A stretch of DNA of 64,000 nt, filler included, from Basidioascus undulatus (lineage: Eukaryota): NCBI GenBank assembly GCA_000826855.1. It is 14 parts of 14 records of this genome, joined end to end, with 100 filler letters (N's around TTAATTAATTAA, not from the genome) between each part and the next. Parts side by side here need not be neighbours in the genome. Positions count along the whole stretch, not along the records: positions 1 to 4,373 come from JTLS01002165.1; 13 more parts are not named here. One strand, written 5' to 3'. The stretch's first letter is position 1, and each line of letters opens with the position of its first letter. Positions 145-60,047 of the stretch are shown piece by piece. The notes beneath the pieces are model-generated. The model had not been told where the DNA came from, did not search any database, and saw only the letters and a program-made list of their open reading frames with translations. The translations under genes and the position numbers were made by a program.

Positions 145-629
145 AACAATCCCAAGAGCGCCTGTCGCACTACCTGGTCTGATTTCCTCTATTTTTATCT
201 CCCCCGCTCTCCGTTGTTTCACGAACTTTGCGATACCCCTCACCCATGATGCACCACGCTCTCTTTACCAGACGGCGCTGTGCACCATGAGTGAGCGGTG
301 AGCTTTGTCGGGGCTGGATCATGTTTGCAGGCCGTTCCGGAGTTGATCATTGACTGGGTTGAGGAGGCTTGTCGGAACGGTAGGCAGCATGAACTGATGC
401 AGGATGGGTCAACGGCCACTTGACGCCAGAGCAAGGCAATGTGGCCTGAAGAGAGTTGTATAACGTGTCCACTCAGGTCGATGTTTGATCTACTTCAGCC
501 GGAAGTTTTGCAGGTCTCTGACACTGTTGAACAGTCGGACGCCGCTTTCTGAGCCAACGCGATCCACAGCGATCGCACGGTTCTGTTCTTTCCGCAAAGG
601 AAAGGGCGTATGTGTTTTTTTTTTAATTT

Positions 630-753
630 CTTTTTTGTAATCACCATTAAACGTAAGCTAGTGGTAGTCGAGATCAGGGGGTTTCAGGTCCGATCCCTGC
701 GTCGGTCACGGCCGGCTGGCTCAATGGTAGAGTATCTAACTACGACTTTTTTG
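630..753 (+). repeat. 8-bp direct repeat CTTTTTTG (630-637 and 746-753) flanking the permuted tRNA; candidate target-site duplication
   Basis: Identical 8-mers abut both ends of the tRNA-derived segment; low complexity lowers certainty. Confidence 0.55.
638..745 (+). tRNA. Circularly permuted, intron-carrying tRNA-Arg(ACG) copy, possibly a pseudogene
   Basis: 3' half 673-708 (ATCAGG-GGGTT-TCAGG TCCGATC CCTGC-GTCGGTC-A) precedes 5' half 710-745 (GGCCGGC-TG-GCTC AATGGTA GAGT-A-TCTAA-CT-ACG-A); all 7 acceptor-stem positions pair; intron-like hairpin 638-672; three defects (C55, T49:C65, A30:C40). Confidence 0.8.
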
Positions 754-1152
754 CTTCGCGTGACCCTGAAGTTTCATTTTCAACTACTTTACGGTAAAAA
801 TCTATGCACTTGAAACTGCAGTCGGTGGGGACACTGTCCGCTACAAAGCCAGCGGTGTGCAACCTGAGGCTGGCTACCACCCTGGTTCGGTGCTGTGCGA
901 CTGCAACGGACTACCTGAGATGGGTCGGACTGCTGGGATAAAGGCCCATATCATTTAGGTAGTAAACAAGAATGCAGAAGAGGTAATGGAACACAGAAGC
1001 CTGGTTCACTTTACGTCGGCCCTCCGGAGTCGATAATCGTTGTAAACGACTTCCATAATACATGTGCGTAATACGCTTTCGGCCCTTTAAACACCAATCT
1101 CGGCCCATCTCGATTTCCCATCCTCGTTGCCAAGCCTGTTCTTGCTCGCTCC

Positions 1153-1493
1153 CTACACCCTGTGCGCCTTGCACCACTGTCAACTCTCAAATGAGCCGCC
1201 CGCCGGCGAAGCCTGTGGCAAAAGGAAGAATAACGTACCTCTCTGTGCGATGGCCAGTGGGACTTCTGATGTGCCTGCGAGCAGTACATTGCACCTTTGC
1301 AAGCTTGGCACACCGAAACGGCCGGCGCCCCACAGATGTCGCACGGCGAAGCCAGACAGACTCGGCGCGAACGTTCGAGTAAAGCTGCAATACAATGCTC
1401 TTCAAGCTGTCCGACTCCCTCCCTTACTTTGGGGTTCTGCTCGAGCCGCACAGCGCGTATGAGCAGTCGCGCCTTTTCGGAAAGAAAAGGCAT
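1153..1493 (-). CDS. Small MYND zinc-finger protein
   Basis: CDIC..CQAC...YCSQAHQKSHWPSHRE; GT-AG intron 1238-1177 supplies the terminal WCKAHRV*. Confidence 0.7.
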
Positions 1494-4304
1494 GGGACAG
1501 TGGCCGTCAACATTTTAGGCTAAGCGGCTCTACGTGAGCGGCTCGAAGAGCTCGAGAGATATTCCGAATTTGAAGGAGGCCACGATCGAGTGTAGGCGTT
1601 CAGGTTGGGCAAGAGGGATCGTGGAAATGAGGAGGAAATCCGGCTGGGGCGTGAGTAGCGATAGCGCTCGCTCGAACCCGAGGCTCGTCCACATGCACAT
1701 AGAAGGCACCCTCGGGAGGTAGAATATTAAACTGAGGCTTGAAACTGAAAGCTGACCCCGGGGTGCTGCTTAGCAAACTAGTCGAATACGCACGTCCAGT
1801 TACGCAGATCATGGGGGAATGTGGCGCCACGGCTAGGTCGGCATGGTCGTCGTTTGTTGTCGAACAGGCCAGAAATAGAGCCTCCACAGTGCAGATCGTT
1901 GTTTTTGGTGAACCCACCCCCTAAAACAGCCCGGATCTCGCCCAGCGGTGTGGGCGCGTAATTGTCGGCGCGGCGACAGACAACGGCGTGGGCCGTCTGT
2001 GGGCACCAAACTCGCTACAGAGATCATCGACACAGAATCCATTTACCGGGGGGCGAGGCGCGCAAACTCCGTGCGAGAAGGGTCCGATATACGCATAGTC
2101 GGTCAGACAGGAAGCGCCCGACATGCCTCTCCGTAGGATCGAGCATGTTGATCACCGGCTGAGCGATAGTGAACGTCTCGATAACGAATTTGAGGGGCAG
2201 TGAGGCAGTGTGAAGGAGACCCAGGCCTGAACCGTCCGAATAGGACGAAAGAGCGAGGGATGGGACGCAAACGGCCTCGCCTTGCTGGGACGAAACGCGG
2301 CGACGGAACTGAGTGTCCACCCGCTGCGCTTGTGGTTCGTCGTCAGCAAGCTGGGCTTGCGCAAGCTCCCCATTTATTTGTCAACCTGAATACAGGCTCT
2401 GGGCTGTGGTGTGTGCATGGCATTATTAGCCGGTGGCCAAAAAGCAAACCTTGACGGTAGAATGCAGTTGCCCGCTCCTGCCTCTCCTCCGCGGTGGTCT
2501 TCTCATCTTCGGCATCTGCATGTGCGTGGCGCGTGTACCCATATTCCCTTCCGCAGTTGGGCTCCGACGCTGACATCCTGTTCTTTACTTCTCAGTCAAG
2601 AGCAGACTCACTGGTCGGCACCTCTGAGCGGCGGTGGAATCTGTAAGCTACCCTGTTCCATTGTGTATGTTTCCTGCTAACCTGCTCAACTTTTATTTTT
2701 CAAAATCCGGCGCACCCTTCACAGCACCGGTAGGAAGCGTCGTTGGAGATGAGGGGTGCCGGTTTATCGGGGCATTGTCGGGCAGTCGAATTGTCCAGTG
2801 ACTGCAAGCTTTCTCTCATCTTTAAATTTATCTTTACTCAAAGCATGAATATACAGAAGATCACCCACCTTCCATAAAGCTCTCTCGCCTTGTGCGCGCA
2901 CACTAGCCAGGGCATCCCCAGGCATCGCGAGAGAGACACTGCCGCACTGCTGTTCGGAGCGCAAAATGCAGACTGTCTGCCGAGCTTCTTTGGACACTGG
3001 GAGGACTAAGAAGGACTGACTTGCACAACGAGACTGACCTATTGCTCGATTCCTCGAGAGCAGCGGGAGAGCCACTTGCTACATCGAGTGTGACTGCCTT
3101 GCCTCTGCCACGTCATATTAGGGCAGTATTCAAAAACATTTTAAACGGGGGACGGTCTGCTTTCAAAGACGACTTTCTTTCATCGACTGATGTCGTCACT
3201 CTTCGCCTTTGCCGTTGAGTGGCACAGGCCAGGTCTGCGGGTGCGTGGCGGGCCGTCGACGGAGCGCGGCGCAGCCTCGTGATGCATTGTCCTCCCTTTC
3301 GCTTTGATTGTACGTTGTTCTCCACCTCCAATAGCCCGTTTCAGTGCACCAATAGTTTGCGAACGTGAGCGCATTTAATTGAACTCCCTGAGGCTCGAGG
3401 AGAGGAGCACTGGCGCGCAGCGCAGTGTGCGAGGGAACAAGCTCTGGCACGGACGGAAGGACGATCAAACTCTCGGTCTTCGACGGCGACCGCCGCGGTT
3501 TTGACGGGACAGGCAAGCACACGGATGTGGAAGAGGATCAGAGCGGGAGCTGGTTGGCGAGCTCAAAAAGTCACGATGCATATGCGTGGATTTGAGGAGA
3601 CGCTGATGAATTTTTGGCGGATGGATGATGAAGAGGAAGGAGGAAAATGAAGTCGAGGAATATGAGGTGGCGCATCGGTAAGGTTGGGGTGAAGGAGATG
3701 ACAGACGCCGCGTCGACCCGAGCGAAGGAGCGAAAACTTGACAGCGTACGTCGCTTCGTTCTCGTCGATTCGCTGTTCGCTCGCTCCGTTCTGAGAAGCA
3801 CTCTGAGGATGTGTTTGAAGATACACAAATATAAAGAAAGTATTATTTGGTTTGAATAGAATGAAGAGAAAGCGAAGCAAAAACAGGCAGCTGAGCGACC
3901 GGCCCTGAACAAGCTGATGTACGGGGGGAATGCGTGCTGAGGGAAAGGCGCGCTCTAGCCGCGTCTGATCACCTTCCCTTCCCCAAACACCCCTCTCTAC
4001 GCTGTCCCTCTTGCTTTCCCCTCCGCCTTCGCTCGTCTCTCTTCAATTCCAGCAGCATCGACGCTTGTCGGATATTGATTTACGCATTTCGAACGCCTGG
4101 GTGCGCGCCATTCACGTGTGAGTATACATGCGGAAGCAGGAGCGCGCTGGGGGAAGGGGCGTGGCGCGTGGCGAGCGGCGTCTACGGGGACTGACTGCGC
4201 CTCGTATCAGGACTTCTGGCTGGACATACCAGATTCGATTGGCGGATTCGACAGCAGAAAACCCCTCCAGCTGGGACTATCAGCAGCCGCGCGAACCTCT
4301 ACCG

Positions 4305-4373: not shown

Positions 4374-4473
4374 NNNNNNNNNNNNNNNNNNNNNNNNNNN
4401 NNNNNNNNNNNNNNNNNTTAATTAATTAANNNNNNNNNNNNNNNNNNNNNNNNNNNNNNNNNNNNNNNNNNNN
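4374..4473. other. Artificial contig spacer (first of 13)
   Basis: N44-TTAATTAATTAA-N44, stops in all frames; others start at 8845, 13311, 17771, 22231, 26690, 31144, 35589, 40032, 46591, 51011, 55427, 59841. Confidence 0.98.
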
Positions 4474-8844: not shown

Positions 8845-11800
8845 NNNNNNNNNNNNNNNNNNNNNNNNNNNNNNNNNNNNNNNNNNNNTTAATTAATTAA
8901 NNNNNNNNNNNNNNNNNNNNNNNNNNNNNNNNNNNNNNNNNNNNATACCAGCGAAAGGTGACGACTAAAAAACAATGAGGTGGTGGTGTTACACAATTTG
9001 AGAAGGAACTGGGGGAGGTGGTGGTTGATCGGTTAGAGAAGACCGATGTGAAGGGTGGAGAGACGGGGGCGGGAGCTGGGCAGACGGGGGAGTCGTAATG
9101 CATTTCGTAGTTCCTGAACGGCTCCGTAATAGCACCATATTGCCATATGTAAAGCGTCCCTCTGTGCTGGTACGGGCAGGCTACTGGCTCGATTGTGCAT
9201 CTTCAACGGCCAACGCGTCGGGATTGCTGGCATGGCTGCGTACAGCCCGTTCTGTGCTCGCGATTCTATTACGGTTGAGCTCTGCCAGCTGAAGGTCCGT
9301 GAAGTCGAATGGGGCAGATGCTGCAGGGCGAGGGTGACAAGCTCGTAACTATTCAAACGTGTGTAGGTTGCGTGAAGGACGCGAATGCAGTATGCGTTTT
9401 CCCTCGTGCACTCCCCCAGACCCCTCGCGATGAGATCCTCCTTCCACTGCCCCGGTGGGAAGGCCTTCCCTGTGTTGACGACCTTCTGGACATGCAAGCC
9501 CAGCACCCCTTTTGGGTGCGAGCTGTCCCGGTCCCCCATTTTCAACTTCAGCAGTGAGCGTCGCCAGCTCGTTAGGCGCTTTGGGAGTATTTGGCTAAGC
9601 TCACGCGGTGAATTAGGGAAGACGGATGTGGGAGTAGAACTTGAGGAAAGAGTTCGGGGTATTGAGACTTTCGACCTAGCAAAAGGCCTGGAGCACTCGA
9701 GAACGTGAACGTTCGTCGTTGCCGCCGGCGCGACGTCGCTTATTGTTGCCTGCCTTCACCCACTACAAGGAGAAATCCCATCAGACATGCTGATCAGGTA
9801 AAGGTATTGCACGGTCGTGACTGCATTAGTGAATGCGCACGCTCGACGTCGTTCAGAAAGGAATCTGCCTTGGAAACCCGCGCAGCGAGACTTTTGCACT
9901 GCGTCGAGGCAGACCAAGCTTGGTGGTAAATCACAGAGCAGTGTTGAGAAGAGAAGCCTTGTCTCACACAACGGGCCGGTACGATGCAGCTGATCACATG
10001 AAATGGCCTGGGTTGATACGCCCGCTCTCGCCGCCGCCGGCACGATGTCCGCGCGCGGGGGCACAACGCCCTGTCTCGCTCGCGCAGCGTGGAATCTCGT
10101 GCTTGGTCCACCAATCGCGCACAGGGTAAGAGTGTATAACGCTTATAATCTTTTGGCCAAACTGACACACTACTTGAAAACGTCACAGCAATCGGGTTCG
10201 CCATGTGCGGTATCGAAGACAGGCCAAGGGAGAGCCCGGTCTTGGACCAGTCTTCTTACTACTACCTGCCCATGTGGCCCGAGGACAGTATAGAGTTGCA
10301 GCGCGACGATGGTATTCGCAAAGAACAAGGACTTGAGCGTAAGTGCTTATCTGTTATGGTCCTTCCGGCATTGCAGAGGAGCATCTTTTTGAGTATGAAC
10401 TTGTCCGCCCTCTGCGTAGACATTGATACTGATTCATCCCTCGCCAGTTTTAGAATGCAGCACATCAACCAGTTCTTCTGCTCCAGTTTCCAGAATGATG
10501 AGGACACCTGTAATGAGTGAGACATTGCGGAGTACGTGTGAGAACCGGACTGACCAAACTACATTTTGATCTAGACTCGTGTACATCTGGAACTACCCGG
10601 TCTGGAATGCACACGAAAACAAGGAGGTCGCCCTTTTTAAATGACTCCATACGACGGTGTGTTCAGGTGGCTTTCTACTGTGTTTGGCGAGGGACTGACG
10701 CGGCCCTCAGCTCTGACTTTGAGCTGAATAACCCTGGTTACAGATAGAAAACATGGTCTGGGTGGACCCGTAGCTGAACGACGGTACAGTCCTGACTGTT
10801 ACCCTTTCCTTTTTTTTTTGACATGTGCTTTGACCAGACCTTCTGATTCCGCTTTCCTGCTGCAGTGAAATCCGCTGTCGTGAATGCGAAGAGCGCCAAA
10901 AAGTTGTTCCACGGCATGATCAAAGAATTATCGAGCTCACGCCAGAGTTCAGCGGCAAGGCGAACCTCGATAATTAGACATCTTGGGAGATAGCAGATGG
11001 AGTGGAGTATCTCATCCGCAGCTTTGGTGCTCTTGGTCAATGTGAGTTGGGTTCTGTGAAGGTGGTTGTGTGATCGCTCGTGGGCACCGAGAAACATCAG
11101 ACTTTTCGCTGAACGCCTGGACTTACAGGCAAACGGCTGACCGAGTTCAGGTTTTTTTTGTTGGCTGCCTCTTCTCTGCCATGTTGAACTTACTTGTAAA
11201 AGTCCTAAATTTCAGACCCGTCTCTCCCACGTTACGCCTCATGAGCCGCTCGATGAGCAACTCGACATGAAGTTCCACCGTTGGCTATCGAACTGTTCAA
11301 CGCTGACCAGGCGACATTGTGTAAGTTGGCCACCTTGGTCGTACTTCTTCTTTGTCCACAAACTGGCTTCTCACAAGTCTGTGACCAGGTACCGTGGTCA
11401 GAAGCTGTTCAGTGATTACCAGGTGTACATTTGGTGGATCATGGCGGCCAAGCAGCAGCCTGCGCCGGCATGCTACTACCCGATATTCAATTCACCCACT
11501 GTGAGCGAAGAAGCACTTGCCCGAAGCGCTCAAAGCTCCTGCTGATCGTGTGTTTTAGATATACTATGACCTCGGAAACAGTCAATTCAACTATCAGGCA
11601 TGATGTTGCGATGTCCATCTTCACACCCTATGCAGTCTGACTTTGTAGTTCCGAACTTTGTGTTTCAGCAGTACCTTTTTCCCGACGCGCCGACCCATCC
11701 CTCTTGCAATACCCCTGTGACAACCGGAAGCCTCCTGATTCACGCCTTCGACACAAACCGCGACGACCAGGTGCGCCCAGCGAAGGAGCAGCCGACGCAA

Positions 11801-12707: not shown

Positions 12708-12785
12708 TGCTTGACCCGTGAATCGAACACGGGGCGGGTCGACTTCAAATGGCAACGACCCAGGTTACCACTACCCCAGCCAAGC
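12708..12785 (-). tRNA. tRNA-Gly(GCC) with 7-nt intron
   Basis: GCTTGGC...GGTCG TT GCC A [TTTGAAG] T CGACC...CCGTG TTCGATT CACGG GTCAAGC A; T7 terminator follows. Confidence 0.92.
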
Positions 12786-30844: not shown

Positions 30845-31987
30845 GTCTAAGAGAAGGGGAAGGCGGTGCGCAGAAGTGTTTGTTACGGGTACAACAACGC
30901 AAGGGAGAAGCGGTAGAGGATGAGCACACTCTTTCTTGTCTGTCTTCTCCGCACGCACATAGGTAGTGATGAAGAGCTGCACTGCTGGCGAAAGAGAGCT
31001 CAAAGGATAAGTAAAAAAATATAAACAGCAAGAAATGCGCGCAAGGACCGCAGGCCAGGAAGCAAAAAGCAAATGACCACTGCAGGGCTCGATCCTGCGA
31101 CATTTTGCGTGTTAAGCAAACACTCTACCAACTGAGTTAAGCGNNNNNNNNNNNNNNNNNNNNNNNNNNNNNNNNNNNNNNNNNNNNTTAATTAATTAAN
31201 NNNNNNNNNNNNNNNNNNNNNNNNNNNNNNNNNNNNNNNNNNNGGGGGGGGGGGACGAATGAAGGGAAACGGAGGACGCGCCGCTCGCGCGTCTCCTCAT
31301 TCCGCCCACGCGACTTTGGGTTTCGCAGCCTGTCCGCCCCCTTCAAGCGAGCGTCTTCCTTCTTCTGCTCGCTGTTTTCCGCGCCACATGCGCACACAAG
31401 CATAAGTCCAGGAAAAACGAGGGCAATCAATGCGTCAAGGAGGCTACGTGCGCCGGCGGTGCGGACCACAAACAAGCGTGAGGGGGCATGCGAGGTGTGG
31501 GATGTGAAGCGTTCAAATCAAGAGAGGGCATGATGGGGATCATCGAGAGACGAGACGAGGGAAATGGGTAATCAGGATTGGGAAAGCAAGGTATGGAGTC
31601 TGTGAGGGGGGGAATGCTATGTTTCGTATGTGCGAAGGCGCTAACTAGTATGTACTACGAAGATGTAGATGAAGCAAGGCGAGACATGAGGAGACAACGA
31701 CGTGCTGACTAGAGAGCGAGAGCGGAGGCGATCATGCATGATGAGAGGACGCGGGCGCGGAGCATGCTGGCGGTCAAGTTTAGACATCTGTGCGGAGGTC
31801 CAAGTCAGCCACCTTGCACGGGTTGAACGAGGGGAGAAGCGGCGAGGGCGACGTACGAGGAATGGAAAAACAATAATACAATAGAGTAGAGAGCCGCTGG
31901 AGAAGGGAAGGGGCGAGCGCGACGGAGCCAGTCCTGGCTCGCAACGAAAGAATATCGAGCCGAGCCGAGGTGCGAAGACGCCTGCGC

Positions 31988-54780: not shown

Positions 54781-56791
54781 TTGCGAATGATGGCCGCCGA
54801 GTGGTTAAGAGATTGTAGCTTGTAGATTCTATGGAAAGTTGGGTCGTTTAGCGTTTTGAATACAACAATGCTGCGGACAGTGCTCCCATGTCTCGAGCGT
54901 TGGTGCAAACCTGCAGCTTTCGTCACCCCATGCCGGCTCTCGACAGTTGGAATTCTTTAACGAACCCTGAGTGCACCGCATTAGCTCCGCATTACTCATC
55001 AGGTCAACGAAGGTGTAAGAGGGACCGGACATGGTGAAAATGACTCCAGACATTCAGGCCATGGCTCGGTTCGCAGTCGTAAACTGATTGTGAGGACCTC
55101 GTATCTTGTCGTACTCCAAGGCGTTTGCAGCTTGCACCACTCGGAGCGGGCCGTGAACATCGGATAAAGCTCTCTTTCTTATGGCGTTTATTCCAAATGT
55201 ATCCTCATTTAATTGTCAGAAAGTATCTTGAATCTCAGGAAATTCATCGCAGCTTGCAACGGAGACGCGCGACGCGTCCTGCAACAGCTCCACCTCCCCG
55301 CGCTTGTTCAGTGCGCCTCCCATCTTTTAACATCCACGCCACACTCCTTCGCTTGTTCTTCATCCTCTCTGGCCTTTTGGCTTAGATCAAGTGTAGTATC
55401 TGTTCTTTCAAGTTTGACAACTTGAANNNNNNNNNNNNNNNNNNNNNNNNNNNNNNNNNNNNNNNNNNNNTTAATTAATTAANNNNNNNNNNNNNNNNNN
55501 NNNNNNNNNNNNNNNNNNNNNNNNNNGTTTTGCGGGTTTTCTTTTTTGAGGGAGGGATTTTCTCCTGAGATACCCTAGTGAATTAAGATGGAGTTAGTTC
55601 ACAAGCGCGTATTCATCGCGCATGAGCCTCATTAATCGTGCACTGCTAGTGAACGGTGCATTCGTTGGAGAGGTCGAGTCTACAACGAGCAGCTTGGGAC
55701 AGACAGGGTGCGGGTGCTGGCAGCTTCTTGAGGAGTGGTGCGCTGACAGGGGGTGCATGTGCTGCCAGTGCACGAGGGTGGGAGGCGGGGGCGCGCCAAC
55801 ATCAGGGGGAGATAGAGCCGGGTGCATCCCTGAATGCTGACCTCAATGCCGACCTGAACAGTTCGGTGCTTCTTGACTGTGAACGTTTCTTTGTCCATTA
55901 TTCTTCGGGCATTCGTTGAACCACAGGATGGAAGCCGGATGGAATAGCTGGTAGGACGGTGCTACGACACCGCGGCCGGGATATTAAACGTCGACTGTCA
56001 GCATCGTGCAGTTGCGAGTTCAAGACGCCGGACCGCTGCTGAGATGCTTTTACTCCTTCCGAGGGTGCGCGCCGGCTTAGGACTGGTGGGAGCGGTGGAC
56101 GATGAGGAGCGGGAAGGAAGCTGCAGCATGCCGATTTCCAACAGTTTTCATGAGGAAAACATGATACTTTGTGCCCGAAGAAAAGATAAAAGATGTGCAG
56201 CCGGCACTGTGTCCAGTACGAGCTGGGATTCACCGAGGAGAGCATGCGCAGCGCCGCCGTGGCAGCGTACTGCCGGTGCCCGTCACATCCATGATCCTGT
56301 TTCTCGGGGCACACTTTCCATAGAGTCTCTTGAACCTTGATGCTTCTGATCCTAAAGTGCCTGGTTGGCTTCTGTCTGCCGTACGTACATACGAGGGAGT
56401 TGAGGCCATCACGGACAGGGGGGGTTGAGATTCCGGCCGATTCAGAACCAATGGAACTGCAGGTAGTTGCTGGATAATTATATCAGGTGGTTCCTTGTGA
56501 AACTCTTACATCCTTGAGGAGACGCTAATTAAGAGTAGACTTGCTAATGCAAGCCCAGCAGGCTGCAGGCGCTGGCGTACCGCGGTTCCCGGGAGTCGTG
56601 TGTGCCGCAAGAGCTAAACATGCTCGCCCTCCGACCACTATAGGAGAAAGGTGAATGATGAGGCCGGAATGGATAAAGCATATTTAGCCACAACGTGACA
56701 CGTACACCTCGTCGCATTGGAGTGCGAGGTTTCATTGGTTTCTTTTCGGTACCAGCCTTTGTGCTACGGAAAGTGACGGAGCCTTCTACAG

Positions 56792-59975: not shown

Positions 59976-60047
59976 TCCTCGTTGGTGTAGTGGCTAACAT
60001 CGGGTGTTCTCACCGCCCAGCCCCGGGTTCGATTCCCGGACGGGGAA
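59976..60047 (+). tRNA. tRNA-Glu(CTC), intronless
   Basis: TCCTCGT...GGGTG TT CTC AC CGCCC...CCGGG TTCGATT CCCGG ACGGGGA A, full cloverleaf. Confidence 0.93.

Follow-up and report, generated by a model that had tools for sequence, protein, structure and literature searches.

How does a tRNA come to be written in DNA with its two halves in reversed order? At positions 630-753 of the stretch analysed here (64 kb in all, called the window below), a complete tRNA-Arg(ACG) is encoded with its 3' half upstream of its 5' half on the same strand. Within the coverage of PMC3978253 and PMC13578239, published permuted tRNA genes are limited to certain algae, a nucleomorph and archaea. The birth of such genes is debated: section 10 of PMC3978253 sets DNA duplication and loss against the reverse transcription of circular or permuted pre-tRNAs. 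The reading that we prefer, tentatively and with a little less than even confidence, is that the element is an RNA-derived and probably inactive permuted copy of a tRNA-Arg, formed in the way that the reverse-transcription model proposes.

The element consists of a 35-nt leader, the 3' half, a single C and the 5' half, in that order, with the word CTTTTTTG at both ends. This is the arrangement given in the original prediction (repeats, hairpin, 3' exon, extra C, 5' exon), and each part lies exactly where that prediction had placed it. The parts and the tract in front of them are the following.

615-636, plus strand: T-rich tract (T10, AA, TTT, C, T6) directly upstream of the element, the presumed insertion target
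630-637, plus strand: direct repeat CTTTTTTG, upstream copy
638-672, plus strand: leader of 35 nt, with a 7-bp hairpin, the word GTAG (664-667) and G670
673-708, plus strand: 3' half of tRNA-Arg(ACG), positions 38-73 (anticodon-stem 3' strand, variable loop, T-arm, acceptor 3' strand and discriminator A)
709, plus strand: single C between discriminator A73 and G1, the intervening sequence
710-745, plus strand: 5' half of tRNA-Arg(ACG), positions 1-37 (acceptor 5' strand, D-arm, anticodon-stem 5' strand, anticodon ACG at 742-744, and A37)
746-753, plus strand: direct repeat CTTTTTTG, downstream copy, containing T6 (747-752)

The tRNA, read here as a nuclear one, is opened at position 37/38, the canonical intron position, and closed at its acceptor ends through the one C, which holds neither a promoter nor a terminator. 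T6 is a run of the Pol III terminator type and starts 1 nt past A37. The T-rich tract is the sole A/T-rich stretch that might act as an upstream promoter. In the 3' half the T-loop reads TCCGATC, with C at position 55. A perfect 7-nt inverted repeat is also found here, GGTCACG (704-710) and CGTGACC (759-765); one arm spans the A73-C-G1 junction and the other lies just beyond the terminator. This repeat could be a product of chance, or it could allow the junction to pair with the 3' flank.

Is the tRNA really there? When the halves are re-joined by coordinates, ARAGORN at its default settings calls a 72-nt tRNA-Arg(acg). In native order neither ARAGORN nor Rfam finds a tRNA at the element. Rfam's only native-order match is to YrlA (RF02553), at 32.4 bits, with an E value of 1.8e-4 when 3 kb are searched and of 3.9e-3 when 64 kb are. 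The YrlA model matches because both RNAs are arranged alike: T-arm, then a closed acceptor-like stem, then D-arm. The match therefore supports the permuted topology and not membership of the family, which was rejected on a score below the Rfam gathering threshold of 69 bits. The element has no second copy in the 64-kb window, where a search allowing up to 3 mismatches matched the element alone. The whole unit (638-751) gives no thermodynamic signal against shuffled sequences (z -0.15).

The window consists of 14 contigs with a 100-nt linker between each and the next; thirteen have a length of about 4.4 kb and the other of about 6.5 kb. Because these are separate contigs strung together, adjacency across a linker is meaningless. 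The element sits on the first contig (window 1-4373). Contig ends fall within tRNA and U2 genes, the assembly being a fragmentary draft. The linkers, the nearest ORF and the other RNA genes are placed as follows.

4374-4473 and 12 more (for example 8845-8944, 31144-31243 and 55427-55526): linkers, each N44, TTAATTAATTAA, N44
1011-1514, minus strand: ORF with a MYND zinc finger (Pfam E 1.6e-10), about 260 nt from the element
12708-12785, minus strand: tRNA-Gly(GCC), interrupted after position 37 by about 8 nt and followed by a T7 terminator
31074-31146, minus strand: tRNA-Val(AAC), its 5' end cut by the contig end
55362-55426, plus strand: U2 snRNA gene, 5' part only, truncated by the contig break; the Rfam match extends into the linker
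59976-60047, plus strand: tRNA-Glu(CTC), called by ARAGORN and absent from the Rfam matches even at E up to 1

ARAGORN reports the tRNA-Gly(GCC) gene as tRNA-??? with a four-base anticodon, and Rfam does not list it. The tRNA-Val(AAC) gene has the T-loop ATCGAGC, with A at position 54, a base typical of eukaryotic initiator tRNA. About 25 nt upstream of the tRNA-Glu(CTC) gene stands the word TATAAT.

What organism are we looking at? The window is eukaryotic, to judge by the 5' part of the U2 snRNA and by its Pfam families. Only 4 ORFs in the whole window reach at least 250 aa, so its genes are taken to be split by introns. The families recognized in the ORFs are zf-MYND, TauD, Methyltransf_4 (which we take to be the family of Trm8), Glyco_hydro_cc, Cyclin_N, ANTH, adh_short and ATG27. 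On one of the other contigs is a cyclin box, and every named relative of it at 80-91% identity belongs to the Basidiomycota; Wallemia, Mrakia, Phaffia, Cryptococcus, Kwoniella, Tremella and Calocera are among them. Two rows ranked higher, at 53-58% identity, are named for a fish (a row flagged as contamination) and for a plant. Judged from this cyclin box, the contig that bears the element looks like that of a basidiomycete as well. Its trinucleotide make-up is not distinct from that of the other 13 (mean r 0.86). The MYND-finger ORF had no relatives in a large protein collection, in which proteins of similar or greater length were searched.

Ordinary counterparts of the element were found in one metagenome scan with a pattern running from the D-arm to the anticodon, in which A or G was allowed at position 30. 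All 18 loci that it returned are tRNA-Arg(ACG) genes in the ordinary order, and none is a permuted copy. The nearest group comprises L004, L009 (identical to L011), L012 and L015. These genes differ from the element at 10-11 of 72 positions, the closest being identical to it at 62 of 72 (86%); the remaining 13 loci differ at 16-20 of 72. The four distinct members of the nearest group all have a TATA word between 26 and 39 nt ahead of G1, and their trailers read TCTTTTG (L009 and L011, L012, L015) or GTTTTTG (L004). After A37 the genes of this group carry inserts of 8-11 nt. For L015 ARAGORN reports an 11-nt intron at 37, and we read the inserts of L004, L009/L011 and L012 as putative introns too. 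ARAGORN miscalls some genes of the group as Ser or Asn.

Comparison with these genes bears on whether the two halves belong together. Acceptor pair 7:66 is C-G in the element and G-C in its nearest relatives. As the pair is changed on both sides, the halves are cognate, parts of one co-adapted tRNA and not two unrelated fragments. At the neighbouring pair, 6:67, the element has G.U where the nearest group has a U.U mismatch.

The same comparison reveals damage. Three bases are unique to the element. A30, which is G in all 18 canonical genes, breaks pair 30:40 (A30.C40). U49, where 17 canonical genes have G and one has C, breaks pair 49:65 (U49.C65). C55 (position 690) is T in 18 of 18. The last of these changes falls in U54U55C56, a sequence conserved in permuted and ordinary C. 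merolae genes alike (PMC3978253, section 4). The conserved exon elements that PMC3978253 gives for permuted genes are U8, R15:Y48, G18G19, U33 and U54U55C56, and of these the element fails U55 alone; it has kept U8, A14, A15:U48, G18G19, U33, U54, C56 and A58. Its cloverleaf has an energy of -13.1 kcal/mol, against -19.0 to -24.9 kcal/mol in eight distinct relatives, and its optimum fold (-21.2 kcal/mol) is not a cloverleaf. A retrocopy would be expected to decay, and the element does look decayed, with three changes unique among 18 canonical genes and a cloverleaf weaker by 6-12 kcal/mol.

Could the element nevertheless be expressed? Its A and B boxes stand in inverted order, an arrangement described in PMC3978253 as unsuited to TFIIIC. 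In certain fungi upstream TATA boxes are important to tRNA genes, according to section 5 of PMC3978253. The element has no TATA word at -26 to -39 from 638 or from 673; upstream there is only the T-rich tract at 615-636. Given the three unique changes, the optimum that is not a cloverleaf, the order of the boxes and the missing TATA word, we read the element as most likely inactive: it is probably not a working decoder.

What, then, is the leader? The original prediction described it as an intron-like hairpin. The hairpin is present: ACCATTA (643-649) and TAGTGGT (659-665) form 7 bp, one of them G.U, around a 9-nt loop. The end of the leader does resemble the relatives' inserts. The word GTAG, complementary to tRNA positions 32-35 in the 5' half, occurs near the end of the leader and in three of the four distinct relative inserts (L004, L012 and L015), and by eye the last 12 nt of the leader agree with L004, whose insert has 11 nt, at 8 of 11 positions. 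The rest of the resemblance did not hold up. The hairpin lies within chance, 19 of 200 shuffles folding as well as its -5.3 kcal/mol, and the leader has 35 nt where the relatives' inserts have 8-11 nt and start differently. The sole other intron-bearing tRNA in the window, tRNA-Gly(GCC), likewise has its short insert of about 8 nt.

Pairing between leader and anticodon arm was also considered. In the anticodon-intron pair, position 32 pairs with the base 3 nt ahead of the 3' cut; in the element C32 (740) can pair with G670, which stands 3 nt before that cut. A possible central helix, 740-743 with 667-670, has 3 of 4 pairs by eye and no outer helix. An alternative helix, CTAC with GTAG (740-743 and 664-667), is perfect and leaves a 6-nt bulge. 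When folded freely, leader, anticodon and trailer form a long helix in a shifted register.

The flanking repeat matches at 8 of 8 positions (630-637 and 746-753) and is a low-complexity T-run. Its word CTTTTTTG occurs 6 times in the window against an expected 1.94, a count reached by 3 of 100 shuffles. Among the 74 runs of T5-7 in the window, only two have an identical word 20-140 nt upstream: that of the element and one 7-mer. The same word is also the ordinary trailer of a canonical gene, L010, and in a looser test of AT-rich relatives, matches of 8-9 nt between trailer and upstream flank appeared in 3 of 14 distinct loci. The repeat is a candidate target-site duplication: the match is perfect and unusual in the window, but it consists of a low-complexity T-run identical to the terminator word of L010. 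The repeat fits an insertion and exceeds chance modestly, and its downstream copy also resembles an ordinary Pol III terminator. If all 10 differences from the nearest canonical genes had arisen after insertion, an intact repeat of 8+8 nt would be somewhat unexpected.

How could such an element have been made from RNA? The template would have been an end-matured, intron-containing pre-tRNA that had become circular. Alternatively, it may have been a pre-tRNA cut at its 5' splice site only, in which case reverse transcriptase would have jumped from G1 across to the 3' end. Insertion of the cDNA into the T-rich tract would then have duplicated CTTTTTTG. For the lone C there are three possible sources: the first C of CCA, one base of trailer, or non-templated addition during the template jump. 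We infer the RNA intermediate, its reverse transcription and its insertion from the sequence. The route itself has been published as a hypothesis (Soma 2014, PMC3978253, section 10, Fig. 5B-C). The proposed mechanism is in essence the model of Fig. 5C of PMC3978253; the new part would be a natural example.

Several observations bear on this route. The boundaries of the element coincide with RNA-processing sites at its right end, A37 (745), and at the inner junction, A73-C-G1; the left end, 638, is set by the repeat alone. Neither remnants of the outer exons nor a second tRNA were detected beyond the shuffle null when the 4.4-kb contig was compared with canonical genes and the flanks with the halves. 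A D-arm-like stretch (657-667) and a T-arm-like word (508-516) were considered as remnants and rejected, both being within chance. A junction of 1 nt, together with the lack of outer-exon remnants, speaks against tandem genes reduced by deletion, and the one-base junction and the splice-site-exact ends argue against duplication and deletion of DNA. By our reckoning the RNA route would require no more than a single cleavage, at the 5' splice site, followed by circle closure or by a jump across the acceptor stem, and the DNA route would require three breakpoints to land exactly on RNA-processing sites. No reverse transcriptase, integrase or endonuclease family was recognized in any of the 103 ORFs of the window, although 64 kb samples very little of a fungal genome. 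The element carries no poly(A) tail. Overall, the proposal of a retrocopied half-spliced or circular pre-tRNA gains from the layout, the cognate halves, the decay, the inserts after A37 in the relatives and the lack of remnants; it loses by the mismatch between the leader and those inserts and by the low complexity of the repeat.

The element might instead be a working gene, a circularly permuted tRNA-Arg(ACG) transcribed from the A/T-rich tract to T6. By analogy with the route in Cyanidioschyzon and prasinophytes, the splicing endonuclease would remove leader and trailer, ligase would circularise the RNA through A37-A38, and cleavage by RNase P and tRNase Z at the C would linearize it again. 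Much of the layout suits such a gene: both halves are complete and meet at 37/38, the commonest type of junction in permuted tRNA genes (PMC3978253, Table 1); T6 follows A37 at 1 nt and the upstream region is A/T-rich; the C32-G670 pair and 3 of 4 pairs of the central helix are possible; the tRNA-Tyr of Thermofilum pendens likewise has a 1-nt intervening sequence (PMC3978253); the bases U8, A14, A15:U48, G18G19, U33, U54, C56 and A58 are retained; and upstream TATA boxes, as already mentioned, are of importance to the tRNA genes of some fungi. We nonetheless think a working gene unlikely. C replaces the conserved U55, the two mismatches leave a weakened cloverleaf that is not the optimum, no TATA word stands where it would be expected, the A and B boxes are inverted, and the bulge-helix-bulge is without its outer helix. 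The missing U55 and TATA-like promoter are the reason why we do not file the element as a working permuted gene; its expression is only putative. Quite unlikely, too, is that we have caught a newborn fungal permuted gene, made from a reverse-transcribed circular or half-spliced pre-tRNA-Arg, still transcribed between the T-rich tract upstream and T6, and processed via a circle. A further reading starts from a master gene that was already permuted: the element would be a retrocopy of its full-length primary transcript, from start (about 638) to U-tail, so that the downstream T-run would come from the RNA and would have paired with the A/T-rich target. Retrocopies of Pol III transcripts typically end in a terminator-type T-run, and the unit does start after a T-run and end in one; a master gene would also account for a 35-nt leader unlike the relatives' short inserts. 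Even so, we hold this reading to be improbable: the window contains no second copy, 18 of 18 metagenome loci are canonical, and functional permuted genes would be required in a fungus. We know of no such genes in fungi.

Rearrangement of DNA offers a route without RNA, either by tandem duplication followed by two deletions (PMC3978253, Fig. 5A) or by some other local shuffle. This is the model most frequently proposed for permuted tRNA genes (PMC3978253, section 10), and the terminator-like word past the 5' half resembles the trailers of the canonical relatives. It asks much of this locus, however. The spacer between the copies must have been 1 nt long and without a terminator, two more deletions must have ended exactly at A37 and at the start of the leader, and the lost exons have left no detectable remnant; we judge a rearrangement to be of low probability. 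A chimera formed during assembly or amplification of a fragmentary draft would be in keeping with a window of 14 short contigs, some of which break inside tRNA and U2 genes. Such an artefact would have to place two junctions exactly on RNA-processing sites no more than 110 nt apart, and the flanks continue as unique sequence, which makes a chimera very unlikely. Finally, the YrlA match, as the only native-order Rfam match, might suggest a tRNA-like non-coding RNA (YrlA-like or Y-RNA-like) or another tRNA mimic. The match is far below the gathering score, YrlA is bacterial while the window holds a U2 snRNA and basidiomycete-like genes, and in the element the anticodon arm is complete and the identity to canonical tRNA-Arg is 86%; we regard a mimic as extremely improbable. 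The one-base junction, the splice-type ends, the flanking repeats and the lack of remnants are predicted by the reverse-transcription route that we prefer and are not predicted by duplication.

How does the element compare with known systems? Like the type II permuted genes of algae, it has its 3' half upstream, its junction at 37/38, a short acceptor spacer free of terminators and a T-run after the 5' half. Unlike them, it has a host that looks basidiomycete and not algal, C55, two broken stem pairs, no TATA-like word and a flanking direct repeat of 8 nt. The algal and nucleomorph genes of this type were reportedly described by Soma et al. in 2007 and Maruyama et al. in 2010. Such genes, with junction 37/38, occur in Cyanidioschyzon merolae, Ostreococcus, Micromonas and the Bigelowiella nucleomorph (PMC3978253). 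Arg(ACG) is absent from the 34 permuted genes that PMC3978253 lists. Intervening sequences in Table 1 of PMC3978253 range from 1 to 74 nt over permuted tRNA genes in general and from 5 to 74 nt in the eukaryotic ones, against 1 nt in the element.

Mammalian RNA-mediated tRNA pseudogenes provide a second comparison; they have an encoded CCA and flanking direct repeats, and are collinear and intron-less. Like them, the element is a tRNA-derived insert with mature RNA ends at its limits and short direct repeats beside them, and its lone C could be a partial CCA. Unlike them, it is permuted and retains a leader where an intron would be. The permuted tRNA-Tyr of Thermofilum pendens is said to have been reported by Chan, Cozen and Lowe in 2011. 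This tRNA-Tyr(GTA) resembles the element in its 1-nt acceptor intervening sequence and differs in being an archaeal, single-copy essential gene with its junction at 59/60 (PMC3978253). Archaeal permuted tRNA genes encode CCA, according to PMC3978253.

The order of the element (intron, 3' exon, acceptor junction, 5' exon) is the one predicted by the reverse-transcription models of PMC3978253 (section 10, Fig. 5B-C). In PMC3978253 these models stand without a natural example. The element is a candidate for one, with flanking repeats and a parent gene that is still putative. In the permuted-tRNA literature, judged mainly by titles and the openings of abstracts (PMC13578239, PMC8450103 and PMC4090602 included), we found no fungal permuted tRNA gene.

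If the element is RNA-derived, as we tentatively hold, it shows how scrambled tRNA genes can arise, and its fungal setting allows the scrambled form to be compared with the ordinary form of the gene. If it is a dead pseudogene it is a curiosity, yet one that would show that such RNAs are reverse transcribed in fungi. If it should be a functional newborn gene, algae and archaea would no longer be the only known hosts of permuted tRNA genes, and the birth of such genes would be witnessed directly.
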